Assembly: GCA_964353335.1 (NCBI GenBank)
Contig: CAYGVI010000003.1
Span: 99,308-123,307 of the forward strand
DNA: 24,000 nt
Origin: an uncultured Methanosarcinales archaeon
Lineage (GTDB): Archaea; Nanobdellota; Nanobdellia; Woesearchaeales; ARS49
Direction: 5' to 3'
This document shows, in pieces, positions 7,940 to 24,000 of this stretch. The notes under the pieces are model-generated. The model was not told the DNA's origin and did not search any database. It worked only from the letters and a program-made list of their open reading frames with translations. Position 1 is the first letter of the stretch. The number at the start of each line of letters is the position of its first letter. The position numbers were made by a program, and so were the translations under genes.

Positions 7940-8374
7940 ATGCCCAAGGAGGAGAAAAGCGCAGGAGTTGTAATATTCAGGCGCGAGGGAAAGGAAATCC
8001 TCTACCTGCTTTTGTTCAAGAAGTACAAGACAGAATACTGGGACCTTGCAAAAGGCCACATTGAGAAGGGCGAGGCCCCTGTTGAGACAGCAAAAAGGGA
8101 GGCAATGGAAGAGACAGGCATCACAACCCTCAAATTCATTTCCGGCTTTGAGGAAAAACTCAGCTGGCTGTACAAACTCGAAGGAAAGCTTATCAGCAAG
8201 ACAGTGACTTATTACCTTGCTGAAACGCAGGCAAAAGAGGCAAAAATCTCATCAGAACACCTGAAATCAGGCTGGTTCACGCTTGAAGAAGCAGAAAAGG
8301 TATTAAAGCACAAAGATGCAAAGGAGCTTTTGAGGAAAGCGCAGAAATTCCTTGACAAAGATGAAAAACTCTGA
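7940..8374 (+). CDS. Nudix hydrolase
   Basis: The internal ATG 7940 of track ORF 7802..8374 gives MPKEEKSAGVVIF... The Nudix box GHIEKGEAPVETAKREAMEETGI matches Gx5Ex7REUxEExGU (about 8054-8122). Confidence 0.9.
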   Translation: MPKEEKSAGVVIFRREGKEILYLLLFKKYKTEYWDLAKGHIEKGEAPVETAKREAMEETGITTLKFISGFEEKLSWLYKLEGKLISKTVTYYLAETQAKEAKISSEHLKSGWFTLEEAEKVLKHKDAKELLRKAQKFLDKDEKL

Positions 8375-10076: not shown

Positions 10077-10092
10077 ACAAAGAGGATAAAAA

Positions 10093-10365
10093 ATGACCTT
10101 CAAAGAAGTTCTAAAGCAAAAAGTGCCTGCGCATTTGCAGCAGACTCCTGAATTCCCGATAATCATGAAAATGATTCAGGGCGAAAAAATAACAGGCGCT
10201 GAAAGCCTGAGGCACTGGCTTAATGTCGAGATGCAAAAGTGCAAAAACGACCTCAAGGAGTTTGACCAGGCAGGCTCAACAATGAACCGCAAGCGCGTGC
10301 GCTGCGCAGACAAAATGCAGCTCCTTAACCTCGTCCAGGACAAGATTTTACCTTACGTGAAATAA
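10093..10365 (+). CDS. Hypothetical small protein (90 aa)
   Basis: ATG preceded by GAGGAT 7 nt upstream. The stop overlaps the next ATG (TAATG at 10363-10367), which suggests operon membership. No motif recognised. Confidence 0.55.
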   Translation: MTFKEVLKQKVPAHLQQTPEFPIIMKMIQGEKITGAESLRHWLNVEMQKCKNDLKEFDQAGSTMNRKRVRCADKMQLLNLVQDKILPYVK

Positions 10366-10706
10366 TGATTAAGAACATCACCAAAGACAAAATTCTCGCG
10401 CAAAACTGCAATATTTGCAGGAATTTTCTCACAAGAGGGCTTGGATTGATGTTCAGGAAGAAAATGACACCGACAGTCCTTGCCTTCAGAAAGCAAAACA
10501 CAGCTGCAATCCACACTTATTTTGTAAAACACTACCTTGACATCCTCTTCCTGAATGACCAGTGGGAAGTCATAGACCTCATAGAAGGCCTGCAGCCAAA
10601 GAACTTCTACACCCCAAAGCATAAGGCGATGTTTGTCGTCGAGCTGCCAGAAGGCGCAATAGCAAAATCAAAGACTTCAGTAGGCGATGTGATAAACTTT
10701 AAATAG
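10365..10706 (+). CDS. DUF192 family protein
   Basis: 113 aa. GLMFRKK...IHTYFVKHYLDILFLNDQWEVIDL...P.....AMFVVELPEG...VGDVI follows the pattern I recall for DUF192 (GLM.r....gMlF....MknT.ipLDi.f.d..g.V..i..l.P......yvlE...G). Confidence 0.7.
   Translation: MIKNITKDKILAQNCNICRNFLTRGLGLMFRKKMTPTVLAFRKQNTAAIHTYFVKHYLDILFLNDQWEVIDLIEGLQPKNFYTPKHKAMFVVELPEGAIAKSKTSVGDVINFK
10698..10705 (+). promoter_or_regulatory. TATA box (TTTAAATA) for the tRNA-Trp gene, embedded in the last codons of the DUF192 gene
   Basis: Centre 10701.5, which is 30.5 nt upstream of the mature tRNA 5' end at 10732. Confidence 0.5.
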
Positions 10707-10731
10707 GGCACAAGAAGTTATTCTCAATAAC

Positions 10732-10806
10732 GGGAGTGTAGTATAACTTGGCTTAGTATAGGGGCCTCCAGAGCCTCGGATCGGGGTTCAAATCCCTGCA
10801 CTCCCA
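10732..10806 (+). tRNA. tRNA-Trp (anticodon CCA), intron-less, 3' CCA not encoded
   Basis: Hand-folded cloverleaf. Acceptor GGGAGTG pairs with CACTCCC (7 Watson-Crick pairs). D stem GTAT/GTAT has 2 WC and 2 GU pairs, with D loop AACTTGGCTTA. Anticodon stem GGGGC/GCCTC has loop CTCCAGA (CCA at 10768-10770). The variable loop is 4 nt. T stem CGGGG/CCCTG has loop TTCAAAT. The discriminator is A. Confidence 0.9.
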
Positions 10807-10807
10807 C

Positions 10808-11464
10808 TTATTTTTTAATGACTTCTGTTAAGCACCCATTCAAGTTTTTTACAATCTGTGCCAGATGACGTTTCTTTTTAGGATGCTTAAAACCGATAAA
10901 TTGGGCGTAATTAGCAATGGAATCCCTATAAATGGTAAGATGATACGAAAAGAATTGCCTGCATTTGTAAGGCCCGCGTAGGTTCGAGTTAATCCCGAAT
11001 TCACCCAATACCTTTTGAACCTGTTTAAGCCCTTTTTCATTGACCATATTGAGCACAATCCTTTTTTGCGGCACAGAAACATGCGCTTCATCGTCGAAAA
11101 AAGCCTGAAGCCACGCAGTTCTTACTTCACTGCTTGCAGAAATGACTTCTTCTGGAATAAACCATGTGAAAGACTTTAATGCCCCTAATCTTGTAACCAT
11201 TTCATAAATCCATTTAGAAGAAACTTCGTATTCATATTTCTTCTTTGGCACCACTTTTCTGTCAAATTCTTTTTTGACGTCATCAGTAAATTGTTTAATC
11301 AAAGCAGGCTCGGTATTTACGTATCGCACATACCATCTTGTTTGGGTTTTCTTCTTTCTTGGATGTGAAATCAGCTCTTTCTCAGACCGCCTTTGCTGGT
11401 AAACACAAGAATAACCGTCACCAGCAATATGCGCCACAATCCTTGCAAGCTCAGGGCTTATCAT
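10808..11464 (-). CDS. Free-standing double-motif LAGLIDADG-family homing endonuclease-like protein
   Basis: Motif 1 is LARIVAHIAGDGYS and motif 2 is AWLQAFFDDEAHVS, both keeping acidic residues at the catalytic positions. The C-terminal half is basic. The track start 11467 is TTG. ATG 11464 lies 25.5 nt from a TATA (rc of ctttataa, 11486-11493). The stop codon is 1 nt from the tRNA 3' end. Sampled GC is about 32% against about 50% in the flanks. Confidence 0.85.
   Translation of the reverse strand: MISPELARIVAHIAGDGYSCVYQQRRSEKELISHPRKKKTQTRWYVRYVNTEPALIKQFTDDVKKEFDRKVVPKKKYEYEVSSKWIYEMVTRLGALKSFTWFIPEEVISASSEVRTAWLQAFFDDEAHVSVPQKRIVLNMVNEKGLKQVQKVLGEFGINSNLRGPYKCRQFFSYHLTIYRDSIANYAQFIGFKHPKKKRHLAQIVKNLNGCLTEVIKK
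10811..10816 (+). terminator. Oligo-T tract downstream of the tRNA (archaeal-type terminator)
   Basis: TTTTTT starts 5 nt after the tRNA 3' end. The same bases encode the C-terminal Lys-Lys of the convergent LAGLIDADG gene. Confidence 0.5.
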
Positions 11465-11560
11465 CAAATTCCAAGAAATCTCCTGCTTTATAACCCGTGC
11501 GCGACCGTGTCCAGTGACCAGTGTGTTTTATCGACGAGAAAATGTCGGAAAGTTTACGGT

Positions 11561-14032
11561 TCACTCAAGCCCGATCAGCTTCTTTGCCTGCTTTCTGAAG
11601 AATATCAATGCAAGCACGATAAGAATCAATATTGAGTATCCAAGCACTCGTCCTGCGTTTCTCTTCCACCAGGTTGGAATCCTGTCTGGCTCAACAACAA
11701 GCTCAACAGGGTTGCTCCTGACTATTCCGCCTTTGCCGTCTTCTGCTGTGAACACAACGCGCTCTGTTCCATACCAGCCGTAATGCGGTGTAAGAATTGC
11801 GTTGCTGCCTGAGAACATTACCTCAACATTGCTTGCCTGAGTCGAACTAAATGTCAAAACGTCATTGTCAGGGTCCTTGAAATACTGGCCCAAATCAAGA
11901 GTTTGCTGTGTGTCCTGCTTCCATATCTGCGCAGGGATTCCGATTGTAGGAGTCCTGTTGACCTGCACTATAATCGCGATTGAAATAAGCGCTATCAACG
12001 CAACAATGATGAATATCGTGGGCAAAACCCATCTGCCAAGCCTGCTTTCCTTCTGCGCTTTCTTGCCTGGCTTTCCGACTATTGCGAATTCGCCGAGGTT
12101 CTCTGCATCTGCAACAAAGTAAACATACTTGTCATCTGTGCTGACAGGCTCTGCGACTATGCTGTTCCACCTGTCTGTGCCAAGGTGGTAAAGCCTTACT
12201 GAGCTTGGCGCAACATTGTGCCTGAGCATCCAGGATTTCCTGACCTTGAACCTTACGCGCACATCAGAAACCATGTCTTTTTCAACATTGGCGTCAACCA
12301 CAAATGTCTGGTAGACGCAGTCTGAATATGGCGGCACAGTTGGCTTGCAGCGCTTTGCTGTCATAACCAGCTTCTCGACGACAGTGTTGAGCTTGAATGT
12401 GACTTCAGCAAGCCCTTTCTTCCACTTGGTCTCAAAGTGCAATACCTTGTTGGCAAGTGCAAGCTTCCAGCGCCTGTGCGCAAACTTGTTCCTTCTTATG
12501 CGGTGCAAAATAAGTATGATAAACAGTACAATTATTCCAGCGATGACCGTCTTAGCGCTGAGCAGCTCGCTGTAAGTCAATCCCAGTGCGATAACAGCCA
12601 AAACAATGAGCAGCAAAACAAACTTCAAAAGCCTCTTTGCAGGTATCCTGAATCCCTTTACAACTTCATCCTTTGATATGACGAGGTTTTCCCTGCGAAG
12701 CTGCTTTTCGTAGTCCTTCTGCGCCCTCTGCCTTTCTTTTTCAATTTCCTTCTGGCGCCTTTCCTCTTCCTTTGCCTCTTCCTCTTCCTCGCGCTTCTTC
12801 TGCTCTGCAAGCGCTTTCTTCTCGTCTTCGCGGGCTTTCTTCTTTGCTTCCTTCTCAATCCTGCGCTGTTCCTTCAAGCGCGCCCTTTCAGCCCTTCTTT
12901 CTGCCCTTCTTGCCTTTGACTCAGGCGAATTATAGCTCTTTATGCCCATTACGACAAGAACCAAAAGGACAATGAGCACGATTATTGCGAGGATTGTGTA
13001 AATAAGGTATTCTGCGAACAATTTGTCAGCGAAAGTCGGGTTCTTCAAAACAATGGTCAATTCCTTGGTGTATTCCTTTCCTGTTGCCTCAACTATTGCT
13101 GTAAGCACGAGCGGATAGCTTCCCTGCGGAGTTGTTTCTGTCGGCTGGATGACAAGCTTTACGTTTTCGCTGTCGCGCGCTGCAATCGTGACCTGCTCAG
13201 GCTGGACTGTGATAAATGTGGCTCCTTCAAGGCGCAAAAGGTAAGTTGTGCTCCTGTCGCCTGTGTTGACAATCTCAAGCTGTGCTTCCTGTGGCTCGAC
13301 AACAGCGCGTATCTTGTTGACGCCTGTTGCAATCTCAGGAATGTCTGAATCATTTATGTGCAAATACATCTCTATTTCTGCTGCAATTTTGCTTTTCTCA
13401 GTTGAAACGCGCAATACAGGAGTGAAGTCGCCTGACAATGTGCAGTCCTGTGAATGCACTGTGATTGTGATTTGCGCGTTTTCGCGCGGCTCAAGTGTGA
13501 GTGTTTCGTCGCTAATCGCGGTTTCCTGAGGCGAACCGATGACGTTCAATTTGTATGTCTCTGCGAAATCAGCAGGGTTTGAAAGCGTAAAGTGAAAGTC
13601 TGCAGGCTCGCAGGGCATAATTCCCTTTGAAAACACTACAGGGGTAAGCAAAAGGTTGTTTGGAGTCTGGACAATTATTTCCTGCGAGAGCATAAGCTCA
13701 AGCTCATTTGTGAGTATTGATACATCAAGCACCTCATCCTCTGCGTCGCACGGGATGCTGATAAATTCCTGCACAATCTGGCTCTGGCCAGGGTTAAGCG
13801 CGAATGATTCAGGCGAGAAAGTAACCCATTCCTTTGCATTTCCCTCTGCCACAAGCTCATAAACGCTTGGAACGTCGCCTGAGTTGGCGACAGTTATCTG
13901 CCCCTCTGCAGGGCTGCATGCGAATGTGAGAATCCTTCCTGTCCCTGCTGCTGTGAAATCCTCTGCTGCAAGAACTGAAGATATTACAAGCAGGAAAACC
14001 GCGAACCATGTCCAAACGTTTCTGCTTGTCAT
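11561..14032 (-). CDS. Large mosaic multipass cell-surface protein (823 aa)
   Basis: ATG 14032 gives MTSRNVWTWFAVFLLVISSVLAAEDF (signal peptide). Three repeats follow with the pattern ..NxGD....Y.L......(W)(V/I)T..P....L.P......V.. (CARDB/COG1470-like). Next come a TM segment, about 100 aa of KE-rich helix and a TM hairpin. A segment then matches the PGF-pre-PGF pattern (VRFKVRKSWMLRHNVAPSSVRLYHLGTDRWNSIVAEPVSTDDKYVYFVADAENLGEFAIVG). After another TM comes YFKDPDNDVLTFS...VVFTAEDGKGG (cadherin/Ig-like), then a final TM. The track start 14074 is GTG. Confidence 0.8.
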   Translation of the reverse strand: MTSRNVWTWFAVFLLVISSVLAAEDFTAAGTGRILTFACSPAEGQITVANSGDVPSVYELVAEGNAKEWVTFSPESFALNPGQSQIVQEFISIPCDAEDEVLDVSILTNELELMLSQEIIVQTPNNLLLTPVVFSKGIMPCEPADFHFTLSNPADFAETYKLNVIGSPQETAISDETLTLEPRENAQITITVHSQDCTLSGDFTPVLRVSTEKSKIAAEIEMYLHINDSDIPEIATGVNKIRAVVEPQEAQLEIVNTGDRSTTYLLRLEGATFITVQPEQVTIAARDSENVKLVIQPTETTPQGSYPLVLTAIVEATGKEYTKELTIVLKNPTFADKLFAEYLIYTILAIIVLIVLLVLVVMGIKSYNSPESKARRAERRAERARLKEQRRIEKEAKKKAREDEKKALAEQKKREEEEEAKEEERRQKEIEKERQRAQKDYEKQLRRENLVISKDEVVKGFRIPAKRLLKFVLLLIVLAVIALGLTYSELLSAKTVIAGIIVLFIILILHRIRRNKFAHRRWKLALANKVLHFETKWKKGLAEVTFKLNTVVEKLVMTAKRCKPTVPPYSDCVYQTFVVDANVEKDMVSDVRVRFKVRKSWMLRHNVAPSSVRLYHLGTDRWNSIVAEPVSTDDKYVYFVADAENLGEFAIVGKPGKKAQKESRLGRWVLPTIFIIVALIALISIAIIVQVNRTPTIGIPAQIWKQDTQQTLDLGQYFKDPDNDVLTFSSTQASNVEVMFSGSNAILTPHYGWYGTERVVFTAEDGKGGIVRSNPVELVVEPDRIPTWWKRNAGRVLGYSILILIVLALIFFRKQAKKLIGLE

Positions 14033-14100
14033 TTTGTCTGCTCCGGGTGTGCCATGTGGTTCAGCGCAGGGCACAGGAGAAAAAATGAAAACTCACAAGC

Positions 14101-15375
14101 TTAGTAATAAGCCTGCGGTTGCTGATCTTGCTGTGGCTGTGCCTCTTCTCCCTCGTCACCCTTCAGGCGGCTGAATCCGATAACCAGCCCGAGTATAACA
14201 AGCAAAACCACGAGCACGATAAGGCCCCACTCGAGGACTGACCTTGCTGCGCTCTTGCCGCCCTTTGCGACATTTGCTGTCAGCTGGATGTTCTCAAGTG
14301 ATTGTCCGTTTGTGCTTATGGCTGCAGTCACAACCTGTGCTCCGACAGGCGCATCGCTTCCTGCTGTGACAAAGACATAGACAGTTTCTGTCTTGCCTGC
14401 GTCAAGCACGAGTGTGCTGGTCGGAGTTATCTTGACTGTTGCCCAATCGCCTGCCTCAACAGCTACGGTGTAGGACTTGCTTGTCCTTCCGGAGTTTGTG
14501 ATTGTAAGCGGGAAAACCGCAGTGCCGCCCTGTGCGACGTTTTCAAGCTGGCTTCCAACCGATATGGTTGTCTTTGCCTTTGCTGTAGTGGCTGCTGAGC
14601 CGTCTTCGCAGGTGTCGTCCGCAAGGACTTCCATCTGCTTGACAGCGCGCTCCTTCTTGAATCCGTCGTCGTATGAGACTTCAACCTCGACGTCATAGAC
14701 GCCTGGCTTTGCGCACTTTGGTATCCTCAAATAGAGCTCCTCAGTCTCCTTTTCCTCGTCGTTGTTCGGGACTTCATCAATGTAGTCCGAAGCTGTTACG
14801 CCGAGCTGGGGGATGCTTGCTGTAACCTTGACATCAGTTTCGTCCTTTTCTCCCAGGTTCCTGACACGGATTACTCCGAGCAAGGCGCTTCCTGCCTTGA
14901 TTTTTGTGTCCGGGTTGAATGAGATGTCACGGATCATCATTCCGTGGCGCGGGACGTCAATCTTGATGTTGTAATTCTGGACGAGTTCCTCTGCGTTGCG
15001 GTCTGAGAATATCAGGCGCAGCTTGTAGGAGTCCTCTTCAAAGAATGTGTGTACTGGTATTGTGAGTGTCTTGCGGTATGTGACATTTGCGTCTGCGTCA
15101 AAAGTGCTTGTTGAGTCTGATGCAGGCATAATGTCGCTGTGCTCATCGCCGCTGAAGAACGCCTGGATTTCCATGTCGTTGACGTCCTGAGAAGGCGTGA
15201 AAACAACCTTGACTTCTATCTTGTCGCCGCGGAGGACGTCCAAGAGGTTTGATGCGTCTGCGCGCATCTCAATGTCATCAACTTTGACCTGCTCAACTGT
15301 TATTGGCAGTGCAAATGCTGTGGTTGCCAGTGCTATTGCGAGCACAAGCATCAATGCGATTTTGAGTGGATTCAT
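14101..15375 (-). CDS. S-layer-like / CARDB-type surface protein with a C-terminal TM anchor
   Basis: ATG 15375 gives MNPLKIALMLVLAIALATTAFA (signal peptide); the track start 15381 is TTG. It has beta-rich repeats with CARDB-like signatures (IRVRNLGEKDETDVKVTASIP; FPLTITNSGRTSKSYTVAVEAGDWATVKITP). The C-terminus is LIVLVVLLVILGLVIGF plus an acidic/Gln-rich tail. It has its own TATA (15431-15438), a GGGGGT SD and a T-rich tract after the stop. Confidence 0.8.
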   Translation of the reverse strand: MNPLKIALMLVLAIALATTAFALPITVEQVKVDDIEMRADASNLLDVLRGDKIEVKVVFTPSQDVNDMEIQAFFSGDEHSDIMPASDSTSTFDADANVTYRKTLTIPVHTFFEEDSYKLRLIFSDRNAEELVQNYNIKIDVPRHGMMIRDISFNPDTKIKAGSALLGVIRVRNLGEKDETDVKVTASIPQLGVTASDYIDEVPNNDEEKETEELYLRIPKCAKPGVYDVEVEVSYDDGFKKERAVKQMEVLADDTCEDGSAATTAKAKTTISVGSQLENVAQGGTAVFPLTITNSGRTSKSYTVAVEAGDWATVKITPTSTLVLDAGKTETVYVFVTAGSDAPVGAQVVTAAISTNGQSLENIQLTANVAKGGKSAARSVLEWGLIVLVVLLVILGLVIGFSRLKGDEGEEAQPQQDQQPQAYY

Positions 15376-15430
15376 CTTCAATATACCCCCATTGTTTTTG
15401 TGGTTCCTGATGATTTGGAAGTTCAGCCCG

Positions 15431-15438
15431 TTTATAAA
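15431..15438 (-). promoter_or_regulatory. TATA box (TTTATAAA) plus leader with GGGGGT Shine-Dalgarno for the S-layer-like gene
   Basis: The TATA centre at 15434.5 is about 59 nt upstream of ATG 15375. The SD GGGGGT (rc of 15385-15390) lies 9 nt before the ATG. Confidence 0.5.
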
Positions 15439-15482
15439 GGTTTCGCTTTTTTACCTATTCTGCAGTAGTGAAACACTATCAT

Positions 15483-16280
15483 CTACTGATAGTCAATTAC
15501 CTCGATTTCACGGTGCACTATGCGCTGTGCGTCCTCGTTGTAAACCTGCAGCCTTACCGAATAGGTTCCCTCACCCATTTCCTCAGGCAGGTCAAGCAGG
15601 ACTGTGCTTGTGACTTTCTCGCCTGCGTCAACATCCATCGGGCCTATTGTTGCCCTGACAGAGATGTCCGGTATCATTATGATGACTTTTGTGTTGTCAA
15701 GGTCGTGCGTTCCCTTGTTCTGAAAGGTTATGCGCAGCGCCACCTGGTCGCCAGGCAGCTCCTCGTACGGGTTGTGAAGGAAAATATTGTGTATGAAAAT
15801 CTGGAGTGACTCATCGCTTTTAGGCGAAGGTGATGGTGAAGGTGTTGGCACCGGAACAGGGCAAGTGCCTGTCTGTTCGCATGAAACAGGAGGAATTACC
15901 GGAGGCCATTCAGGAAGCTCTGGCTGTTCGTCAGGCCCCTGAGGGTTTCCAGGAATGTCTCCGCCAATTGGCCCGAAATCGTCGTCAAAAGGATCCCAGA
16001 TGCCGTCGCCGGATACGCTGTCGTCCTGCCCGCCTGGGCCTGTATTTTCAGGAACAAAGCCTGTGTCCTGGTCAGGGGTAAATCCGCCGTTCACATCGTT
16101 TGTAAAGCCGATGCTGTTGTCGTTTGTAAAGCCGGAATCGTCCATCGGGTCTATTCCGAAATCAAAATCAGGGGTGAACCCGCCGTCAAACATTTCTGCT
16201 GTTGCGAGAAATGGCACTGCGATTACAACAAGCGCTGCAAGCGCGCTGAACATTGCCGTATTCCATTGTCTCGCGTTCAT
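15483..16280 (-). CDS. Secreted acidic protein: GF(T/V)(P/N)(D/E) repeats, Pro-rich linker, C-terminal CARDB-like beta-sandwich
   Basis: Signal/anchor FSALAALVVIAVPFLATA. The repeats are GGFTPD, SGFTND, IGFTND, GGFTPD and TGFVPE. A linker PVPVPTPSPSPSPK follows. The C-terminus is ALRITFQNKGTHDLDNTKVIIMIPD...GTYSVRLQVYNED. Confidence 0.75.
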   Translation of the reverse strand: MNARQWNTAMFSALAALVVIAVPFLATAEMFDGGFTPDFDFGIDPMDDSGFTNDNSIGFTNDVNGGFTPDQDTGFVPENTGPGGQDDSVSGDGIWDPFDDDFGPIGGDIPGNPQGPDEQPELPEWPPVIPPVSCEQTGTCPVPVPTPSPSPSPKSDESLQIFIHNIFLHNPYEELPGDQVALRITFQNKGTHDLDNTKVIIMIPDISVRATIGPMDVDAGEKVTSTVLLDLPEEMGEGTYSVRLQVYNEDAQRIVHREIEVIDYQ

Positions 16281-16317
16281 TTTCAGGTCCTATAATAATA
16301 TTGTAAAATGAAAAAAA

Positions 16318-17079
16318 TTATTTTTCAACTGCCTTAGCGTAGACAGGGGTCTTTGCAATAACAAGCCTTACTGCAGCCGGCATTTCCTTGAAGTAAACGC
16401 CCTGCTTGTAATCATTGCCTTGCTTGCCCGCATAGCTCTGGTGGTTCTCCTTTGTGAAAGACTCACCGCAGCGTACGTCGACAAAGTCGCCTGCGCCAAG
16501 CATCCTGCCGATATCGTCGGTGCTGCGCAGTATCTTGAATCCGCGCTGCTTGACGTCTTCTGCGCTGATTACTTTCTCAGGCATCCTTTCATACTGCTGT
16601 GCTGAGTTTGCAACAAGCTCAAGAACGTCACGCTGGCTGAAGTATTTGTGCTTTCCTGCCTTTGAATTCAGGTCAGTTGCAAGAGCCTTTGTGTTGACGT
16701 TTGTGATGAGCTCGCGGCCCTTGCTTGCAGTGCCGCTCTTCTCATCCCTGCGCAGGTTGAGGCAGACATAAACATTGCCTTCTCCCTTGTTAAGGCCGTA
16801 ATGCACTATTTCCTGCATGCGTGACCTTGCCTTTTCAACGTCCTTTTCGTGGCCCTTGATGTCAGTGCCCTTGTAGTCTGTAAGCTGGATTGTGTACTTG
16901 GCTGCCTGCCTGAGCTCTTCGAATCCAAGCTGGACATTGCCGAATTTTTCAACGTCAGCAAGCAGTGACTCGAGGGTGCTGGCGGTGTTTTGCTGTGGGA
17001 CTACGCATCCTGCAGCTGCCGCAACTCCGAGAGCTCCAATTGTCTTGAGAAAATCACGTCTTGTTGGTATATGTTGCAT
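16318..17079 (-). CDS. Tat-signal lipoprotein of unknown function
   Basis: The N-terminus is MQHIPTRRDFLKTIGALGVAAAAGC. TRRDFLK is a perfect twin-arginine consensus (S/T-R-R-x-F-L-K), followed by an h-region and the lipobox AAGC. The SD GGGGGT lies 6 nt before the ATG. The mature domain is not recognised. Confidence 0.75.
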   Translation of the reverse strand: MQHIPTRRDFLKTIGALGVAAAAGCVVPQQNTASTLESLLADVEKFGNVQLGFEELRQAAKYTIQLTDYKGTDIKGHEKDVEKARSRMQEIVHYGLNKGEGNVYVCLNLRRDEKSGTASKGRELITNVNTKALATDLNSKAGKHKYFSQRDVLELVANSAQQYERMPEKVISAEDVKQRGFKILRSTDDIGRMLGAGDFVDVRCGESFTKENHQSYAGKQGNDYKQGVYFKEMPAAVRLVIAKTPVYAKAVEK

Positions 17080-17170
17080 TTTATTACCCCCTGTGTTAAA
17101 TACTGTTGGTTTGACACTACTATTGAGTGGGTATTTTTAAAGCTTCGGGTTTATGGGCGGGTTAAGAACA

Positions 17171-19150
17171 TTACTTGCCGTAAATAACTATTCCCGGAGT
17201 AACTATCCATTCGGTTTTGTCGCCGTGAAGCACTGCGCCGTCAACCTTGAAGTCTATCTTGACATCCTTGGTGTTCAGAAGGCGTACTCCTGCACCGACT
17301 TGCCCGCCGAAGCGTGTTTCGTCATCTTTTGTGCCTGTGAACTCGCTGTCAAGCCTTTGAACAAGTCCAAGAGCCTCAATATATCCCCTTGTTCCTGCAG
17401 CGTCAAAGTGCCAGCGGACTCCTGCGTCGCCGTAAATGTTGTTTTGCGAGAGGAATTCCCCGAGTTTTTCATTAAGTGTTGACATTCCTGCCTCGACTGA
17501 GAAGCTGTCGTTAAGCATAAGCCTTCCCTGCAGCTGTGTCATGAGCTTTGTGAAGTCGCCAGTGTATTCGTCTCCTGCATCGCCTTTCACATCGCCCTTG
17601 AGCCCTGCTGCCTGGAATATCACGAAGTTGTGCCTGTTTGCAACACCAACATCGTCATCATCAATAGGTGCCTGCGTGAGGCCTAATTTCAGGTAGCCTC
17701 CAAATCCCTTGTTTCCAAATGTGTAATTGCTTCCGTTTTCAGGCTTGATTGCGAAGTCCCTGTTTTCAGCCATTACTCCGCCCTCAAGGAATCCGTAGAA
17801 TCCCTTGCTCAGGACAGGATAAGTGTGAAGCCCAAGCTGGACGCGTTCTCCGTATCCTGCAATGTCTCCTTCGTCAAACTTCTGCACCTGGTCAAATCCA
17901 TTCAAGTACAGGTCAAGCCCTGTGGCTTTGCCCAGCTCAAGTATTCCCTTGGCTGATGCGCTCACTCCTGTAGTATCATTGTCAAAGATTCCCTTTACAT
18001 ACAGTATTCCCTTAAGCGAAGGGTCTTCTCCGGTGATTATCGGCTTGTAATCAGCAGATGCAGGCGCTGCCTGTTGCGCAGGTGCCGGTGAAGTCATTCC
18101 CTTTAATGCCCTGTAAGCTTCAGTAGGTTCTGGCTGTGTGTAAACTATTGTGTTCTCCCTTGCCTTTGCTTCTGCTGCTTTTCTTTCAGCTTCCTTTCTC
18201 TGCCTGTCTGCTTCAGCTGCCTTTCTTTGCTTTTCTGCTTCTGCGAGCTTCTGCTTTTCTGCTTCAACTGCATTTCTTGCGGCATCTACTTCAGCTGCCT
18301 TTCTTTCAGCAGCTACTTTCCTTGCTGCTTCACGCAGGCTCTCCAGGTTTGCTTCAGTCTCCTGATTTTCCTTTGCTTGAGTGTAAGCTTCTGAAGCTCT
18401 GTCCTGTGATGGCCTTTGCCCTGCATAAGGCGCTGGGCCTGTCTGCGGAGCAGTTGGCTTTTCAGCGACAGGAGGCACTTCAGGACCTTTTGTCTGCTGC
18501 TGAGTTTTGTCAGCAAGTGATCTTGAGTCAGGAACTTTTACTGGCGTAGTTGTAACCGGCACAGGCTTAATGTTTTCCTGCGTTACAACATCTGGGTTTT
18601 TCGGCAAACTTCTATAGAAAAGATTGTATCCTGCCCATAATACCGGAGCAAGTGCCAAAGCAGCGATAGCCGCAATGTAAACAGTGCGAACTCTTCCAGC
18701 TGCCCTGCTTGGAACTGTGTGGAAATAGTCTCCTATCCTGCTGAGCAATCCTTTCTTTTCAGTGCTGCCAAGCATTCCTGCATAACTTACAGGATTTGTG
18801 TGGACAACTTCTGTAGGCTGTGCTTCAACAACAGCTTCGATACTTTCAGGTTTTGCAAGGCTGTCTGCAAGCGTTGTATAAACATTTTGTGCGCGGCTCC
18901 TGAGGTTTTCATAGTCAACCTTTGCGCGCTTTTCCTTGGACATCTTGATGACATTGTCGTAAAGCTTTACAGCAGAAACAAGGTCGTCATACTTTGCATT
19001 CTTTCCGTTTGCGCGGTGCTCGAGAATTTGGAGTTTGTTTTCAGTGTTGTAGCTGAGTATTCCCAAATCTTTGATTTCAAGATTGCTATCTGCTGCCTGT
19101 TTTATCTCGTCTTTAGAAAAGTTATGCCGTTGAAATTGGTAGTTTTCCAT
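17171..19150 (-). CDS. Membrane-anchored protein with TolA-like layout and a porin-like C-terminal domain
   Basis: 659 aa. A cytoplasmic N-domain of about 150 aa is followed by a TM (VYIAAIAALALAPVLWAGYNLFY, about aa 155-178). Next are a Pro-rich segment (aa 180-250) and a KAAE/AEKQ helix (aa 262-332). The last roughly 290 aa contain at least 12 segments of alternating hydrophobic/polar residues (e.g. DVKIDFKVDGAVLH, IYGDAGVRWHFD, RFGGQVGAGVRLL, EWIVTPGIVIYGK). TATA at 19196-19203; SD AGGGGT 8 nt before the ATG. Confidence 0.75.
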   Translation of the reverse strand: MENYQFQRHNFSKDEIKQAADSNLEIKDLGILSYNTENKLQILEHRANGKNAKYDDLVSAVKLYDNVIKMSKEKRAKVDYENLRSRAQNVYTTLADSLAKPESIEAVVEAQPTEVVHTNPVSYAGMLGSTEKKGLLSRIGDYFHTVPSRAAGRVRTVYIAAIAALALAPVLWAGYNLFYRSLPKNPDVVTQENIKPVPVTTTPVKVPDSRSLADKTQQQTKGPEVPPVAEKPTAPQTGPAPYAGQRPSQDRASEAYTQAKENQETEANLESLREAARKVAAERKAAEVDAARNAVEAEKQKLAEAEKQRKAAEADRQRKEAERKAAEAKARENTIVYTQPEPTEAYRALKGMTSPAPAQQAAPASADYKPIITGEDPSLKGILYVKGIFDNDTTGVSASAKGILELGKATGLDLYLNGFDQVQKFDEGDIAGYGERVQLGLHTYPVLSKGFYGFLEGGVMAENRDFAIKPENGSNYTFGNKGFGGYLKLGLTQAPIDDDDVGVANRHNFVIFQAAGLKGDVKGDAGDEYTGDFTKLMTQLQGRLMLNDSFSVEAGMSTLNEKLGEFLSQNNIYGDAGVRWHFDAAGTRGYIEALGLVQRLDSEFTGTKDDETRFGGQVGAGVRLLNTKDVKIDFKVDGAVLHGDKTEWIVTPGIVIYGK

Positions 19151-19251
19151 GTCAGGTTACCCCTATTATTAGTTGGCAGGGAATATCGCCGGCTGTTTAT
19201 AAATCTTCGTATTTATCACTACTTTACAGGAGTAAAGCATTTGTTCGCAAT

Positions 19252-19259
19252 CTTTTTAA
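19252..19259 (+). promoter_or_regulatory. Weak TATA-like box (CTTTTTAA) for the leaderless geranylgeranyl reductase gene
   Basis: Centre 19255.5, with ATG 19282 lying 26.5 nt downstream. Confidence 0.4.
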
Positions 19260-19281
19260 CACAGCGCCAGCTCGCAAGCCC

Positions 19282-20367
19282 ATGCGCGTCGCTATCGTCG
19301 GGGCAGGACCGTCAGGAAGCTATGTAGGCTTCCTCCTTTCAAAAGCCGGTCACGATGTCACAATCTATGAAGACCACGAAAAAATAGGCGAGCCAATAGC
19401 GTGCACAGGCATCGTGACAAAAGCGCTTTTCGACCTTGTTGAATACAGCAAAGACTACATTATCAACGAGCTTGACGGCGTTGACATAATCGGGCCAAAA
19501 GGTGAAAAGCTCCGAATCCCGCTGAAAGAATACGTGCTTTGCAGGAAAAAGTTTGACAATTATCTTGCAAACAAAGCAGGAAATGCAGGTGCAAAAATAC
19601 TGCTCAGCCACAGGTACACCGGAAGGGAATGCAACACCCTAATTTTCAGGCATAACGGACAAATAGTCAAAAAAGAAACAGACATTCTCATCGGCGCAGA
19701 CGGTCCTTTAAGCAAAGTTGCAGAAACTTCAGGGCTTGGTAAAAACAAAAACTTTTACGTCGGCCAGCAGGCGACAATCAAGGCAAAATACGACCAGAAA
19801 ATATTCACAGTCTGGTTCGGCAGCATTGCCCCTGGATTTTTCGCGTGGAGCGTGCCTGAAAATTCAGAGTACTCGCGCATTGGCGTCGCGACAACAAAAG
19901 ACAAGAACTGCGCACAATGCTTCCAGAGACTGATGAAAATGTCAAAAGGAAAAATCACAGCAAGGCAGGCAGCACCAATCCCGTTGTACAACCATAAAAG
20001 AAAAGTGCAGAACAACAGCACTTTCCTTGTCGGAGACGCAGCCGGATTTGTAAAAGACACAACAGGTGGTGGAATCATCACAGGAATGCTCTCAAGCAAA
20101 GCCCTTGCTGAAAGCATAATCCGCAAAACAAGCTACGAAAAGAACCTCAAGAAGCTGAGAAAAGAGCTTTGGCTTCACAGCAAGCTCAGGAGGATGCTTA
20201 ACAGATTCTCAGACAATGATTACAGAAGGCTTATCAGGCTGATGTCAAACCAGAAAGTCAGGCGTATATTATATAGCCATCCGAGGGAGTATCCTTCAAG
20301 ATTCCTTCTGAAGCTCCTGCTCGCAGAGCCGCGGCTCATTTATTTCGCAAAGCACGCGTTTGCATAA
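19282..20367 (+). CDS. Geranylgeranyl reductase family FAD-dependent oxidoreductase
   Basis: The N-terminal dinucleotide fold is VAIVGAGPSGSYVGFLLSKAGHDVTIYE. Family motifs are LIGADGPLSKVA and FLVGDAAGFVKDTTGGGIITGM. Confidence 0.9.
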   Translation: MRVAIVGAGPSGSYVGFLLSKAGHDVTIYEDHEKIGEPIACTGIVTKALFDLVEYSKDYIINELDGVDIIGPKGEKLRIPLKEYVLCRKKFDNYLANKAGNAGAKILLSHRYTGRECNTLIFRHNGQIVKKETDILIGADGPLSKVAETSGLGKNKNFYVGQQATIKAKYDQKIFTVWFGSIAPGFFAWSVPENSEYSRIGVATTKDKNCAQCFQRLMKMSKGKITARQAAPIPLYNHKRKVQNNSTFLVGDAAGFVKDTTGGGIITGMLSSKALAESIIRKTSYEKNLKKLRKELWLHSKLRRMLNRFSDNDYRRLIRLMSNQKVRRILYSHPREYPSRFLLKLLLAEPRLIYFAKHAFA

Positions 20368-20421
20368 TCCCGCGAAAGCTTTTTAAGCAAACCACATAAA
20401 CAGCGGGCACAGGGGGATTGC

Positions 20422-23400
20422 ATGCCTGAAGACGACGAACTTTCAGTTGATTTTGGAAAAGTTGGCGACTGGTTCAAGAGAAAAAAGAAGCCCGAAGCAG
20501 AGCCAACGCCAGAACACCAGCCTTCATTGCTCGCTGACAAGCACGCAGCAGTTCCACACGAGCAGCCAAAAGAGCATTCTGAAGCAAAGCACACTGAAAA
20601 AGATGATGAAATCAGCATTGACTTTTCAAAAATAAAGTCCTGGTTCACAAAAAAGGAGCATTCAGGAAAAGATGAAGGCAAAGAAGACCTCGGATTTGAT
20701 TTCAGCAAGCCGTGGGCATGGATAAAAGCCCACCCCGTCCTGATAATACTCGCAGTCCTCCTGATAATGCAGTTCGTTCCAAACAGGATTGATATTGGCG
20801 GCAAGGACTGGTACATGCCCTGGGGCGGGGTAAGCATGCGCCTAAGGAGCGAAAGCCTGCCAATGACAGACGGCTGGGCAGCGAACCATGTCACAACCCT
20901 GCTCAAGAACCAGCTGGTTGATGCGATTAACAAGCAGTATCCCAACCTTCCTGACGAAAGAAAGCAAAAGCTTGTGAATGATGAATGGGACAAGGTATAC
21001 AAGGAGCAGAAAGCCCAGATTGACCCGCAAATAACTGCTGTCAACCAGCAGATAAAGGAGTTCTGGATGTATGAAGCAGACGGCGTGAAATACACTTACA
21101 TGCCTGACATTGACCCTTACACATACCTAAGATATGCCAGAAACCTGCTTGAGAAAGGCACTTATGCTGACGAAGTGAGGGATGGCACATTAATCGACAA
21201 CCACATGGCCGCGCCCTTGGGTGGCGGGGTAAGCCGCGAGCTGCAGCCATACACTCTCGCAGTGCAGTACAAGATACTGCACATCTTCAGCCCGAAGATT
21301 GACCTTATGCAGGCAGCTTGTTATTTCCCCATAATATTCATCCTGCTCTCGCTGATTCCTGCGTTCTTCATCGGCAGGCGCTTTGCAGGAATGTCAGGCG
21401 GAATCATAACTGCAACAATGGTGGCAATACTGCCTTCAATTATTGTCAGGACAGGCTGGGGCCACGCAGACACTGACGCTTACAACATTTTCTTCCCGCT
21501 CCTGTTGACCTGGCTTTACACGCTGATGATTGATGCAGATGACACCAAAAAGATTATTGGATTGGGCGCATTGTCAGGGCTTGTCACAGGAATTTACGCA
21601 TTTGCCTGGCCTGGCGGCTGGTGGTATGTATTTGACTTCATACTCGCTGCATTCGGAATACTGGTCATAAGCGAAATCGCAAGAAATATCAAGCACAGAC
21701 AGAAGCTGATTGAAATAATAAAGAAGCGCGCAATCCTGTTAATCACTTACCTGGCAGTTTCAGGAATATTTGTAAGCCTGTTTAGAAGCACCACTGAGTT
21801 TTTCAATGCCCCAATGGCGCCATTGGGATTCACAATCATCAAGGCAGCTGCGCATGTAAGCCTCTGGCCAAATGTTTACACAACTGTCGCAGAGCTTAAT
21901 CCCACAGACCTTAACGGCGTTATCGGCTCTGTCGGAGGGTGGCTGTTCTTCTGGATTGCAGTTGCAGGAATGGCAATGCTCCTGATAAAGCGCTCAAACA
22001 ATGAGTGGAAGTTTGACCTCAAGTATGCACCCTTGTTTGTGCTCTGGTTCATCGCAACAATTTACGCGAGCCTTAAGGGAGTGCGTTTCACATTGCTTAT
22101 GGCTCCTGCATTCACAGTCGTGTTCGGAATTGCCATTGGCAGGATTTACAACTGGCTGGTCAGAATCAGCATAAAAGATTTGCACTTGAATGAAATAGTG
22201 GCTCATGCATTGATAATTGTAATGGTGGTGCTGATGCTTTCAGGCCAGGCAAAAAGCGCCTATAACTCCTCAGGAAGCGACATTCCGATAATGAATGACG
22301 CCTGGTGGAGCACACTCACTGCGATAAAGGCAGACTCAAAGCCTGACGCGATAATCAACTCATGGTGGGACTTTGGCCACCACTTCAAGTATATCGCAGA
22401 CCGCGCGGTCACATTTGACGGCGCATCACAAAACACGCCAATGGCGCACTGGATTGGAAGGACTCTGGCAACTAACAATGAAACAGAGGCAGTGGGCATT
22501 TTGAGGATGCTTGACTGCGGCTCCTACTCCGCATTCGATGTGATTAATGCCCAGTTCAATGACCCTGTAAAATCAGTCAATCTTCTCCGCGAAATTATCG
22601 TGGTTGACCGCAAGTCAGCGCTTGCAATACTCGCAAAGGAAGGGGTTAATGAGCAGGAACAGTTATTGAAACTCACACACTGCGACCCGCCAGAAGACTA
22701 CTTCATAGCATCAGGAGACATGATTGGAAAGTCAGGCGTCTGGAGCCACTTTGGCTTCTGGGACTTTGAAAAAGCAAAGCTGTGGACGATTCTGAAGAAC
22801 CAGCCAGAGGAAACCGCAGTGCAGTCAATGATGAACGAGTGGAACTACACCCGCGAACAGGCAGAGCAGGCTTACTTGGATGTGCAGGCATTGGGCAGTG
22901 AAGGCGATGCGAATGCATGGATTTCACCATGGCTTGGCATACTTGGCGAGGCTGTTGACTGCTCAACCCAGAACGACCTGATTGGATGCGGAAATGGTTT
23001 CGTAATCAACACGTCCAACAATGACGCGCGCATCAATACAGGCCAGGGGGTTGGCAAGCCAAAGGTCGTCGTCCAGCTGACAGAAAAAGGCGGATTCTCT
23101 GAAATCAAGTTTAATGACTCAAATACCGCGGTTGGAGTGCTTCTCTATCCGACAGGGCCAGGCGCTTACAAGGCGGTGTTAGGCTCTCCAGAGCTTTTGA
23201 CAAGCATATTTGCCCGCCTTTACTTCCTTGAAGGCCACGGCTTGCAGCACTTCACTGCGTTCAGCCAGCAGAGGGAATTAACAGGCGGCGGAATTTACAC
23301 TTACAAGGTCAACTGGGCAGGCAATGCAACCAAAGTTTTCAGCGGCTTTGAAGCCCTGAAGGCTGCGAAAGAAGCGAACACAACAGAGAAGAAAGTTGAA

Positions 23401-23748
23401 AAGGGCGCAAAGGAAGGCGACACAGTGAGCGTTTACTACATCGGCTCATTGCTTGACGGCAATGTGTTTGACAGCAGCATAAAGGACTGGAAGAAAAAAG
23501 GCATTGCTGCAAATTCCTCATTTGACGACAACGAACTCACAGGGCCATTGTCATTCAAGATAGGCGCAGGACAGGTTATTGAGGGCTTTGATGCAGCAGT
23601 TAGGGGAATGGACATTGGCGACGAGCAGATTGTGCAGATTCCGCCAAAGGCAGCATACGGCCTTGACCCCAAAGCCCACGCCCTCGGCAACCAGACCCTG
23701 AGATTCAAGATTAAGATGGTCCGCATAGATCCCGCCTCAGCCAATTAA
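20422..23748 (+). CDS. aglB: Archaeal oligosaccharyltransferase AglB (STT3 family) fused to a C-terminal FKBP-type peptidyl-prolyl isomerase domain
   Basis: 1108 aa. The multi-TM N-terminal half has an acidic loop motif (GHADTDAYNIFF). The WWDxG catalytic motif is INSWWDFGH (22363-22380). The last 117 aa (23395-23745) read KEGDTVSVYYIGSLLDGNVFDSS...LSFKIGAGQVIEGFDAAVRGMDIGDEQIVQIPPKAAYG...LRFKIKMVRI, a full FKBP signature. The frame is uninterrupted throughout. Confidence 0.9.
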   Translation: MPEDDELSVDFGKVGDWFKRKKKPEAEPTPEHQPSLLADKHAAVPHEQPKEHSEAKHTEKDDEISIDFSKIKSWFTKKEHSGKDEGKEDLGFDFSKPWAWIKAHPVLIILAVLLIMQFVPNRIDIGGKDWYMPWGGVSMRLRSESLPMTDGWAANHVTTLLKNQLVDAINKQYPNLPDERKQKLVNDEWDKVYKEQKAQIDPQITAVNQQIKEFWMYEADGVKYTYMPDIDPYTYLRYARNLLEKGTYADEVRDGTLIDNHMAAPLGGGVSRELQPYTLAVQYKILHIFSPKIDLMQAACYFPIIFILLSLIPAFFIGRRFAGMSGGIITATMVAILPSIIVRTGWGHADTDAYNIFFPLLLTWLYTLMIDADDTKKIIGLGALSGLVTGIYAFAWPGGWWYVFDFILAAFGILVISEIARNIKHRQKLIEIIKKRAILLITYLAVSGIFVSLFRSTTEFFNAPMAPLGFTIIKAAAHVSLWPNVYTTVAELNPTDLNGVIGSVGGWLFFWIAVAGMAMLLIKRSNNEWKFDLKYAPLFVLWFIATIYASLKGVRFTLLMAPAFTVVFGIAIGRIYNWLVRISIKDLHLNEIVAHALIIVMVVLMLSGQAKSAYNSSGSDIPIMNDAWWSTLTAIKADSKPDAIINSWWDFGHHFKYIADRAVTFDGASQNTPMAHWIGRTLATNNETEAVGILRMLDCGSYSAFDVINAQFNDPVKSVNLLREIIVVDRKSALAILAKEGVNEQEQLLKLTHCDPPEDYFIASGDMIGKSGVWSHFGFWDFEKAKLWTILKNQPEETAVQSMMNEWNYTREQAEQAYLDVQALGSEGDANAWISPWLGILGEAVDCSTQNDLIGCGNGFVINTSNNDARINTGQGVGKPKVVVQLTEKGGFSEIKFNDSNTAVGVLLYPTGPGAYKAVLGSPELLTSIFARLYFLEGHGLQHFTAFSQQRELTGGGIYTYKVNWAGNATKVFSGFEALKAAKEANTTEKKVEKGAKEGDTVSVYYIGSLLDGNVFDSSIKDWKKKGIAANSSFDDNELTGPLSFKIGAGQVIEGFDAAVRGMDIGDEQIVQIPPKAAYGLDPKAHALGNQTLRFKIKMVRIDPASAN

Positions 23749-23800
23749 TGAGATTTCTTATCCATAACCTTAATAAACCAATTGTGGCTCATTTCCGTCT

Positions 23801-24000
23801 ATGGGGAATAAGGTTTTTATCGTGATTGCAGCGTATAATGAGCAGAATTCTGTACCCCAAGTCATCAAGGAACTTCACAAGGCAGGATACAAGGATATTG
23901 TGGTTGTTGATGACGGCAGCAAGGACAAGACTTTCGATGCGGCATTGGATGCAGGCGCAACAGTCCTTCAGCACGTCGTGAACCGCGGACAGGGGGCTGC
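23801..24000 (+). CDS. Family 2 glycosyltransferase (dolichyl-phosphate sugar synthase-like), N-terminal fragment
   Basis: My translation is MGNKVFIVIAAYNEQNSVPQVIKELHKAGYKDIVVVDDGSKDKTFDAALDAGATVLQHVVNRGQGA. It carries the GT2 hallmarks (AYNE, VVDDGSxDxT, NrGqGaA). A TATA (TTAATAAA, 23770-23777) is centred 27.5 nt upstream. The frame runs off the window. Confidence 0.85.
   Translation, partial: MGNKVFIVIAAYNEQNSVPQVIKELHKAGYKDIVVVDDGSKDKTFDAALDAGATVLQHVVNRGQGA

Follow-up and report, generated by a model that had tools for sequence, protein, structure and literature searches.

A predicted outer-membrane-protein-type β-barrel on a membrane-anchored stalk, encoded in an archaeal envelope gene cluster

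Layout of the gene and its product

On the minus strand of the window (the whole stretch of 24,000 nucleotides of archaeal DNA analysed here), an open reading frame (ORF) at 17171–19150 starts with ATG and encodes a protein of 659 amino acids (ORF list with translation), the C-terminal domain of which is predicted to be a β-barrel of the type found in bacterial outer membrane proteins (OMPs). An earlier reading of the DNA (the original prediction) had divided the product into a cytoplasmic domain, a single transmembrane (TM) helix, a Pro-rich segment, a charged segment and a C-terminal domain; this layout matches the composition and hydropathy of the ORF, and its elements are as follows.

17171–19150, minus strand: whole ORF; signal-anchored protein with a predicted C-terminal OMP-type β-barrel (ORF list; full-length homologues P0001–P0003)
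18686–19150, minus strand: N-terminal cytoplasmic domain, aa 1–155, conserved from Met1 (MENYxF..H..S; KMSK.KRAKV.Y..L..RA; alignment A1)
18617–18685, minus strand: single TM helix or signal anchor, aa 156–178, N-in (hydropathy scan and flanking Arg)
18371–18616, minus strand: Pro-rich extracytoplasmic linker, aa 179–260, 17% Pro (composition)
18152–18370, minus strand: E/K/R/A-rich, presumed helical stalk, aa 261–333; 73 residues, 75% E/K/R/A, no Pro (composition)
18020–18151, minus strand: second, Pro/Ala-rich linker, aa 334–377, leading into the barrel (composition)
17177–18019, minus strand: predicted 14-stranded antiparallel β-barrel, aa 378–658 (AlphaFold2, Foldseek, OMP_b-brl and belt statistics)
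19159–19203, minus strand: putative archaeal promoter and ribosome-binding site (sequence reading)

The N-terminal domain has no Pfam, NCBIfam or PDB sequence match, and no signal peptide was found within it (aa 1–155). The sole strongly hydrophobic segment of the protein in the hydropathy scan is aa 156–178 (TVYIAAIAALALAPVLWAGYNLF), directly preceded by SRAAGRVRT; the three Arg residues ahead of the helix fit an N-in/C-out orientation. The charged segment, expected to run to about 70 residues, measures 73, and the range originally given for the C-terminal domain (17174–18049) agrees with that of the predicted barrel, after which a single Lys precedes the stop codon. Upstream of the gene, candidate signals were read from the sequence: a TATA-like element, TTTATAAA, at 19196–19203, about 50 nt upstream of the ATG, and a Shine-Dalgarno-like AGGGGT at 19159–19164, 8 nt upstream of it. 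Both would lie within the 131-bp divergent intergenic region that the barrel gene has in common with a gene for geranylgeranyl reductase (GGR).

Predicted fold and hydrophobic belt of the C-terminal domain

The barrel was assessed from an AlphaFold2 (AF2) prediction, using strand assignment by DSSP, confidence scores and whole-domain Foldseek alignments. Given an alignment of 24 family sequences (A3), AF2 returned 14 long antiparallel strands of 13–21 residues with short connections, at a local confidence score (pLDDT) of 93.1 (92.1–93.1 across five models) and a predicted TM-score (pTM) of 0.86; an alignment of three sequences (A2) yielded the same β-meander at pLDDT 68 and pTM 0.62. Foldseek recorded 220 PDB matches at E ≤ 1e-3, and our statements on the PDB rest on the best 50 of these. 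Bacterial outer membrane barrels dominate the list, headed by OmpG (2iwv; E 5.9e-9, TM-scores 0.57/0.59) and then FadL and CymA, all 14-stranded; no soluble barrel or sandwich is among the top matches, and none of the PDB OMPs exceeds 14% sequence identity. The whole-domain alignments with OmpG, CymA and FadL have E-values of 6e-9 to 2e-7, TM-scores of 0.55–0.59 and sequence identities of 8–12%. The named matches in a viral structure library were also OMP-type.

The Pfam family OMP_b-brl (PF13505) matched the window protein at E 1.5e-5 to 2.7e-5 (24.9–25.7 bits, below the gathering score of 28.7 bits) over about 150 of the 280 barrel residues, and it matched eight of the 24 C-terminal domains of the family at E ≤ 0.1 (best E 5.5e-8). 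Across the family, the matches to OMP profiles range from sub-threshold to threshold level. The only other profile families to match, more weakly, were DUF481, OprF, BBP2_2 and MipA, each through single family members; OprF, BBP2_2 and OMP_b-brl are membrane or porin barrel families according to their Pfam descriptions. OMP_b-brl models small barrels of 8–10 strands, as against the 14 predicted here. A sequence search of the PDB with family profiles found nothing significant (best match an invasin, E 0.12).

OMP-type barrels carry a lipid-facing belt of non-polar residues about 9–10 residues high around a polar lumen, and a belt was sought in the DSSP strands and the 24-sequence family alignment, that is, in sequence and not in three-dimensional coordinates. 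A clean belt was defined as a run of five alternate residues (a span of nine) in which, over all aligned members, non-polar residues make up 85% or more and charged residues 5% or less. Such a run occurs in 11 of the 14 strands, compared with 2.0 ± 1.25 when columns are shuffled within strands; none of 500 shuffles reached 11. On the opposite face, which is rich in Gly, 31% of the residues are charged, and this face is the more conserved of the two: column entropy is 1.83 bits on the polar face and 2.21 bits on the non-polar face, a difference reached by one shuffle in 500. Membrane barrels show this bias towards conservation of the polar face, and soluble proteins the opposite one. Alternation had been called strict in the original prediction, which overstates the case for the single sequence (mean period-2 hydrophobic moment z = 2.8–3.1 over 1000 shuffles); the signal gains its strength only at the level of the family.

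The belt lies no more than one residue from the terminus-proximal strand end in 11 of the 14 strands and no more than two in 13 (chance about 1e-4), so that strand extensions of 3–11 residues would project on the far side. The extensions of strands S3–S6 (7–11 residues) hold the most conserved motifs of the domain (G63, R67, E93, R95 and F109-G110-N111, domain numbering). On the predicted strands, the position of the belt and the far-side extensions reproduce the topology of bacterial OMPs. No loop is long: the largest one comprises 16 residues, among them a DDDD motif, and lies on the side of the termini, and the loops on the far side, away from the termini, are very short. At the C-terminus, 21 of the 24 members have a Lys/Arg tail and none has an aromatic end (F, W or Y), and thus the classical C-terminal signature of clients of the β-barrel assembly machinery (BAM) is absent. 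A GxxHxH motif occurs in the last strand of 11 members, and the window protein is not one of them.

Together, the AF2 meander, the outer membrane barrels retrieved by Foldseek, the Pfam matches and the belt support the proposal that the domain is an OMP-type β-barrel and not a soluble sandwich; the predicted structure is not a soluble fold with a buried core, and its belt is backed by sequence and DSSP. The dozen or more strand segments originally counted become 14, and the five segments quoted as examples all fall on predicted strands (S13, S10, S12, S6 and S14), but the length given for the segments (9–14 residues) was too short.

Family, gene neighbourhood and strain variation

An exhaustive hidden Markov model search with a profile of the C-terminal domain, covering 1.84 billion (1.84e9) cluster representatives, returned 28 proteins at E ≤ 1e-3, 24 of them at E ≤ 1e-10, and no recognisably bacterial relative was among the 28. 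P0027 and P0028 were not counted in the family: the matches to these giant proteins consist of several short stretches, and P0028, which was scanned, is an adhesin with immunoglobulin-like (Ig) repeats. The family is therefore rare, at about 26 clusters among the 1.84 billion representatives. A word-indexed search found three homologues, of which P0003, 38% identical to the window protein over its full length, has no charged helix; a metagenome scan with a full-length alignment (A5) added two further loci.

The constant part across the family is the barrel, and the region that precedes it varies. The subclade of the window protein has the N-terminal domain and an uncleaved TM helix. Many relatives (P0007, P0009–P0012, P0014, P0023, P0025, P0026 and P0030) have an N-terminal domain of 170–320 aa followed by a hydrophobic segment that ends in a lipobox-like L[LSG][SG]C and GK, a motif that the window protein lacks. 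Short forms of 330–430 aa start with a standard signal peptide, which in some of them includes a lipobox. Export of the barrel is thus predicted throughout, by an N-in signal anchor here and by signal peptides or lipobox-type segments in the relatives. If the internal lipobox were processed like a lipoprotein signal, a large cytoplasmic pro-domain would be freed, an arrangement that would be uncommon.

The linker between anchor and barrel ranges from 29 to 199 residues across the family and is Pro-rich or charged. Among the relatives examined, a comparably E/K/R/A-rich linker is present only in P0001 and P0002, the close relatives of the window protein, and in P0006; P0003 and P0004 have Pro-rich linkers in its place. 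Given this variability, the “TolA-like stalk” of the original prediction is best regarded as a lineage-specific spacer. The likeness to TolA and TonB holds for layout and composition, in that an N-terminal TM anchor precedes a long segment rich in Pro or in Lys, Ala and Glu in all of them (envelope-spanning in TolA/TonB), but it does not extend to homology. The TolA model TIGR02794 matched aa 192–333 at E 5e-6 with 25.9 bits against a cut-off of 59.45, a match that we attribute to composition, and PRK09510 scored 8.7 against a cut-off of 213. There was no Pfam match to TolA_III or TonB_C in the window protein, nor any match to TolQR or ExbBD among the subset of window ORFs scanned with Pfam and NCBIfam or in precomputed annotations of the syntenic loci. 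Unlike TolA and TonB, the window protein has a cytoplasmic domain of 155 aa, and its C-terminal domain is predicted to be a barrel and not to bind one. Matches to Tle3, TraG and DnaX all fell on the same low-complexity stretch and were discarded.

The barrel gene is flanked by genes of the archaeal envelope, and part of the region is strain-variable:

19282–20367, plus strand: geranylgeranyl reductase (GGR; archaeal lipid saturation), divergent from the barrel gene (TIGR02032, 177 bits)
20422–23748, plus strand: AglB/STT3 oligosaccharyltransferase with a C-terminal FKBP domain (Pfam STT3 1.4e-29, FKBP_C 2e-19)
16318–17079, minus strand: lipoprotein of 253 aa with a twin-arginine translocation (TAT) signal (RRDFLK...AAAGC), downstream of the barrel gene (TAT_signal matches; lipobox from translation)
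11561–16280, minus strand: three secreted or anchored Ig/NEW3-like surface proteins of 265, 426 and 837 aa (Pfam NPCBM_assoc, FixG_C and Ig-like)
15995–18643, no strand assigned: hypervariable recombining island that runs from inside the gene for the 265-aa protein (N-terminal portion) through the lipoprotein gene to the linker and barrel (blastn)

The best PDB relative of GGR is the digeranylgeranylglycerophospholipid reductase of Thermoplasma (3oz2, E 4.7e-20), and the STT3 region of AglB resembles eukaryotic STT3A (E 1.7e-11) more than bacterial PglB (E 5.5e-5). The exact barrel protein also has an entry on a contig of 487,933 bp in NCBI and Logan. Ten further loci were compared with the window (L001–L004 and L006–L011). 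Where the flank extends far enough, the gene order is AglB-FKBP and GGR, then divergently the barrel gene, one or two small genes, Ig/NEW3-like genes for proteins of about 260, 420 and 830 aa and, further on, PolX. GGR is recognisable in 10 of the 11 loci including the window (the upstream flank of L006 is too short to score), and the order of the surface-protein trio is conserved in L002, L003, L006, L009 and L010. This synteny persists down to about 27–30% barrel identity with the window protein. Each locus has one copy of the barrel gene, which disposes of neighbourhood paralogues; its GC content is like that of the flanks, and one syntenic contig, from a GTDB species-representative metagenome-assembled genome (MAG), is labelled Candidatus Nanoarchaeia archaeon. 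A viral origin was rejected, as no relative lies on IMG/VR contigs, and so was recent horizontal transfer, given the flank-like GC and the absence of a close bacterial relative from our searches. From the synteny, single copy, GC content, lack of viral or bacterial relatives and archaeal neighbours, we conclude that a Nanoarchaeia clade has passed the family on by vertical descent, and that contamination and recent transfer do not account for it.

Closely related strains differ sharply within the island. Between the window and L003, DNA identity is 92–95% over 8333–15995 and 18643–24000, and there is essentially no nucleotide similarity over 15995–18643 (one 104-nt match at 77%); the right-hand breakpoint, at about 18643, lies inside the TM helix. 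At the protein level, the two are 98% identical in GGR, 91% in AglB, 96% in the 426-aa protein, 98% in the 837-aa protein and 92% in PolX, and within the barrel protein itself the N-terminal domain is 83% and the barrel 40% identical. The L003 barrel is, in turn, 90% identical to those of P0003 and P0004, with N-terminal domains only 47–54% identical, and L001, the genome of P0003, is more distant overall (its GGR, a partial ORF, is 79% identical to that of the window). L003 thus joins an N-terminus of the window type to a barrel of the P0003/P0004 type, which indicates a chimeric gene in which the extracytoplasmic module has been exchanged.

The adjacent genes vary as well. L002 and L004 are 92–97% identical to the window at the DNA level outside a divergent stretch at 16020–17163, which retains a match of about 90–125 nt at 79–84% near 16200–16300. 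The product of 16318–17079 is, from its twin-arginine TRRDFLK and subsequent lipobox AAAGC, predicted to be a TAT-exported lipoprotein, and it has no family or structure match in Pfam or the PDB. L001 encodes a version of it with 64% identity, and L002–L004 carry other genes at this place: L002 and L004 have a leucine-rich repeat (LRR) protein and a different small protein in its stead, and L003 a Sec-type lipoprotein with the lipobox LAGC. On these alignments, the parts of the barrel protein predicted to be exposed, together with the adjacent lipoprotein and LRR genes, reassort between closely related strains. Reassortment of this kind is expected of surface specificity or arms-race determinants, such as those of host recognition or virus receptors, and not of housekeeping components; the locus is a likely specificity determinant.

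Other differences were seen in the same region. A gene for a TM and coiled-coil protein, absent from the window, separates the barrel gene from the lipoprotein gene in L002 (2235–3242), L003 (11926–13017) and L001 (2752–3852), with C-terminal leucine-rich repeats in L002 and L003; its product could be a partner-binding module of the cassette. The 265-aa secreted protein (15483–16280, minus strand) consists of acidic Gly/Phe-rich repeats (GGF or DxxGF), a Pro-rich stretch containing Cys and a NEW3/CARDB-like domain; the half that holds the repeats varies between strains, and the half with the domain is conserved.

On the other side of the barrel gene, the FKBP-type peptidyl-prolyl isomerase domain occupies aa 995–1099 of AglB, a fusion retained in L008, L009 and L011 according to Pfam annotation. 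Beyond window position 24000, the genes next to AglB (L003 924–4230; also L009 and L011) encode a GmhA-like SIS protein, a PfkB kinase and a cytidylyltransferase-like protein (HldE-like), two GT9 heptosyltransferase-like proteins, a GT2 protein and DUF2304. L008 has GT9, SIS and a truncated CTP_transf gene, and the locus ends before the PfkB gene. This cluster resembles an ADP-heptose-type glycan pathway, best known from the lipopolysaccharide cores of bacteria, within an archaeal envelope locus.

Membrane placement and known counterparts

Transmembrane β-barrels of the OMP type are regarded as a defining feature of the outer membranes of bacteria and of the organelles that descend from them, and Omp85 insertases fold them there. 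To our knowledge, archaea lack Omp85 insertases, and no β-barrel OMPs have been identified in the few archaea reported to have two membranes. A full-text literature search found no description of OMP-type barrels in Nanoarchaeia, Woesearchaeota or DPANN archaea, or of outer membrane proteins of diderm archaea; the one hint was a passing, single-line remark on a possible PopA relative in Altiarchaeales. The fold itself is known, and what appears to be new is a native, syntenic archaeal family in which it is fused to a cytoplasmic-membrane anchor; the cassette-like exchange of an exposed module also appears to be new.

The nearest structural counterparts are OmpG, CymA and FadL, which likewise have 14 antiparallel strands, with the termini and tightest turns on one side, extensions on the other and no oligomerisation domain. 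They differ from the window barrel in that the latter has only short loops, no N-terminal hatch of the FadL type and a Lys or basic tail in place of an aromatic end; it is also fused to a stalk and an inner-membrane anchor, is encoded by an archaeon and has no sequence-level PDB match. Type V autotransporters are more distant, with 12 strands as against 14: the window protein has a cytoplasmic N-terminus and no autotransporter Pfam match, and EspP and NalP are weaker structural neighbours (Foldseek TM-scores 0.41–0.47).

In layout, the closest analogy is to OmpM and SlpA, the outer membrane tethers of diderm Terrabacteria, which consist of an S-layer homology (SLH) domain, a coiled-coil stalk and a C-terminal porin barrel (PMC10628300). 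The archaeal protein may work in a comparable way, its N-terminus anchored in the inner layer of the envelope and its stalk leading to the C-terminal barrel, which would lie in an outer bilayer and could serve as a channel. Its anchor differs, being a TM helix in the cytoplasmic membrane (with a lipobox Cys in relatives), and neither the window protein nor 10 relatives matched the SLH domain. The barrel would have 14 strands, compared with 16 in OmpM and a much larger barrel in SlpA; the stalk is not conserved in the archaeal family, and no homology was detected.

Among archaea, the pore protein of the crenarchaeon Ignicoccus hospitalis is reportedly small and α-helical and not a β-barrel. It has no sequence or fold relation to the window protein, with which it shares an archaeal origin. 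As cited in a later review, it is reported from the second, outer membrane of the cell; on this example, pore formers would be present in the outer membranes of archaea (Burghardt et al., 2007, cited in PMC4243693).

We consider it very probable that the window gene encodes a type II (N-in) membrane protein of a DPANN archaeon (Nanoarchaeia) in which the exported C-terminal 280 residues form a 14-stranded OMP-type barrel with a lipid-type belt and a conserved, polar, Gly-rich face lining a water-filled lumen, and that it belongs to a small family inherited with an envelope gene cluster, the barrel always being exported and the linker free to vary. Where the barrel resides is a separate question. 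We infer insertion into a second membrane, which is probable because an open barrel would be harmful in the cell’s own energised membrane and because some relatives lack the anchor. Our tentative preference is for a bilayer other than the cell’s own cytoplasmic membrane, most likely that of a partner or host at a site of contact, in view of the hypervariable cassette, the LRR neighbours, the long flexible tether and the symbiotic lifestyle of cultivated DPANN archaea; the molecular basis of DPANN–host contact has been described as poorly understood (PMC11329633). The barrel would then act as an anchor, a channel of about 1 nm, or both; the stalk of about 200 Pro-rich and charged residues would tie it to the symbiont’s membrane, and the N-terminal domain would couple it to the cytoplasm. 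Insertion would be independent of BAM, by self-insertion, which the very short far-side loops would assist, and the linker and barrel, with the adjacent lipoprotein and LRR genes, would constitute exchangeable specificity cassettes.

Several points weigh against this reading. Either membrane model requires Omp85-independent insertion, and we know of no machinery for inserting β-barrels in archaea; the bacterial C-terminal β-signal is missing from the family (no aromatic end in any of the 24 members, and in the window protein not even GxxHxH). In a foreign bilayer, the conserved, charged extensions of S3–S6 would have to cross the membrane, which argues somewhat against spontaneous crossing, and an ungated pore in the energised membrane of a host would be toxic. 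Replacement of the whole barrel also fits a role as a phage receptor or at the cell’s own surface. Two strands depart from the belt, S11 being ambiguous and S7 14% charged, and the belt is deduced from sequence and DSSP assignments.

Less likely than a partner membrane, in our judgement, though the main rival to it, is that the clade is diderm and the barrel resides in its own outer membrane as a porin and tether, the TM helix or lipid anchor and the stalk joining the two membranes as a functional analogue of OmpM and SlpA. The order of anchor, stalk and C-terminal barrel suits this, tethering and diffusion being likewise combined in OmpM (PMC10628300), as do the OMP-like topology, with the termini and belt facing the cell and the strand extensions outward, and the presence of the barrel gene as a single copy in a conserved envelope-biogenesis cluster. 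ADP-heptose-like and GT9 genes stand beside AglB in L003, L009 and L011, and in part in L008, and anchor-free relatives with only a signal peptide need a destination membrane. Diderm archaea have been reported, including the DPANN archaeon Altiarchaeum (PMC8871954), and a review from 2014 reasoned that archaeal double membranes would require integral outer membrane proteins (PMC4243693). However, the C-terminally TM-anchored surface proteins of the cluster suit a cytoplasmic membrane with a surface layer, and there is a single barrel family with no Omp85-like gene in the short flanks read (about 10–20 kb per locus). A tether of 29–199 residues that is missing from some members would be odd for a spacer of fixed distance, and it would be unusual for strains that are 93% identical to swap an entire housekeeping porin.

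Somewhat less probable again is that the barrel is not inserted in a membrane at all but forms a soluble or surface-layer domain on its stalk, serving in binding, as a lipid or ligand carrier or as a subunit of an oligomer, with the hydrophobic stripe buried against partners such as the co-varying lipoprotein. The missing aromatic β-signal and the modest amphipathicity of the single sequence are compatible with this, and we know of no pathway for OMP insertion in archaea. The variable lipoprotein and LRR genes nearby could supply binding partners, and the likeness to channels for hydrophobic compounds of the FadL family fits lipid handling beside GGR. Against it, a plugless barrel of 14 strands cannot bury a hydrophobic core, the non-polar ring lies at one end across 11–13 strands as in membrane barrels, and the polar face is the more conserved, opposite to soluble proteins; moreover, all the named structural neighbours are integral OMPs, with no soluble barrel or sandwich near the top of the best 50 of 220 matches.

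That the gene is foreign or artefactual (a bacterial gene on a mis-binned contig, or a recent transfer of an ordinary OMP) or that the barrel sits in the cell’s own cytoplasmic membrane is very improbable: OMP_b-brl is a bacterial family and the taxonomic label comes from the MAG classification of one syntenic contig, but 11 independent assemblies, with contigs as long as 488 kb, place the gene between archaeal-type GGR/AglB and other conserved genes, with the GC of its flanks, at most 14% identity to PDB OMPs (best 50 of 220), no recognisably bacterial relative in the exhaustive profile search and none on viral contigs, and an open barrel inserted in cis would short-circuit the cell’s membrane.

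The most far-reaching claim, that a Nanoarchaeia lineage natively makes and inserts an OMP-type barrel without Omp85, we regard as unlikely. In its boldest version the cell is diderm, with a porin and tether and with the ADP-heptose and GT9 genes decorating the envelope; in the alternative version the barrel is planted in the membrane of a host as a conduit for DPANN–host exchange. If the diderm version were true, OMP-type barrels and outer membranes would not be exclusively a bacterial invention. A vertically inherited, anchored family of archaeal barrels would give a handle on an archaeal outer membrane or on the machinery by which DPANN archaea breach or grip their hosts, would be a natural test case for BAM-independent insertion into ether-lipid membranes, and would bear on whether barrels arose once in bacteria, are older or are convergent. 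That strains so nearly identical exchange the exposed module suggests that it acts at a second membrane or where the cell touches another, and cassette exchange is traceable in population genomic data without cultivation.

Outside the envelope genes, a free-standing LAGLIDADG endonuclease ORF (10808–11467, minus strand) directly follows a tRNA-Trp gene (10732–10807). L002 lacks exactly the interval 10816–11560 of the window, which suggests that the ORF is a mobile insertion; L003 has it too, and L010 has a similar LAGLIDADG ORF beside a tRNA.

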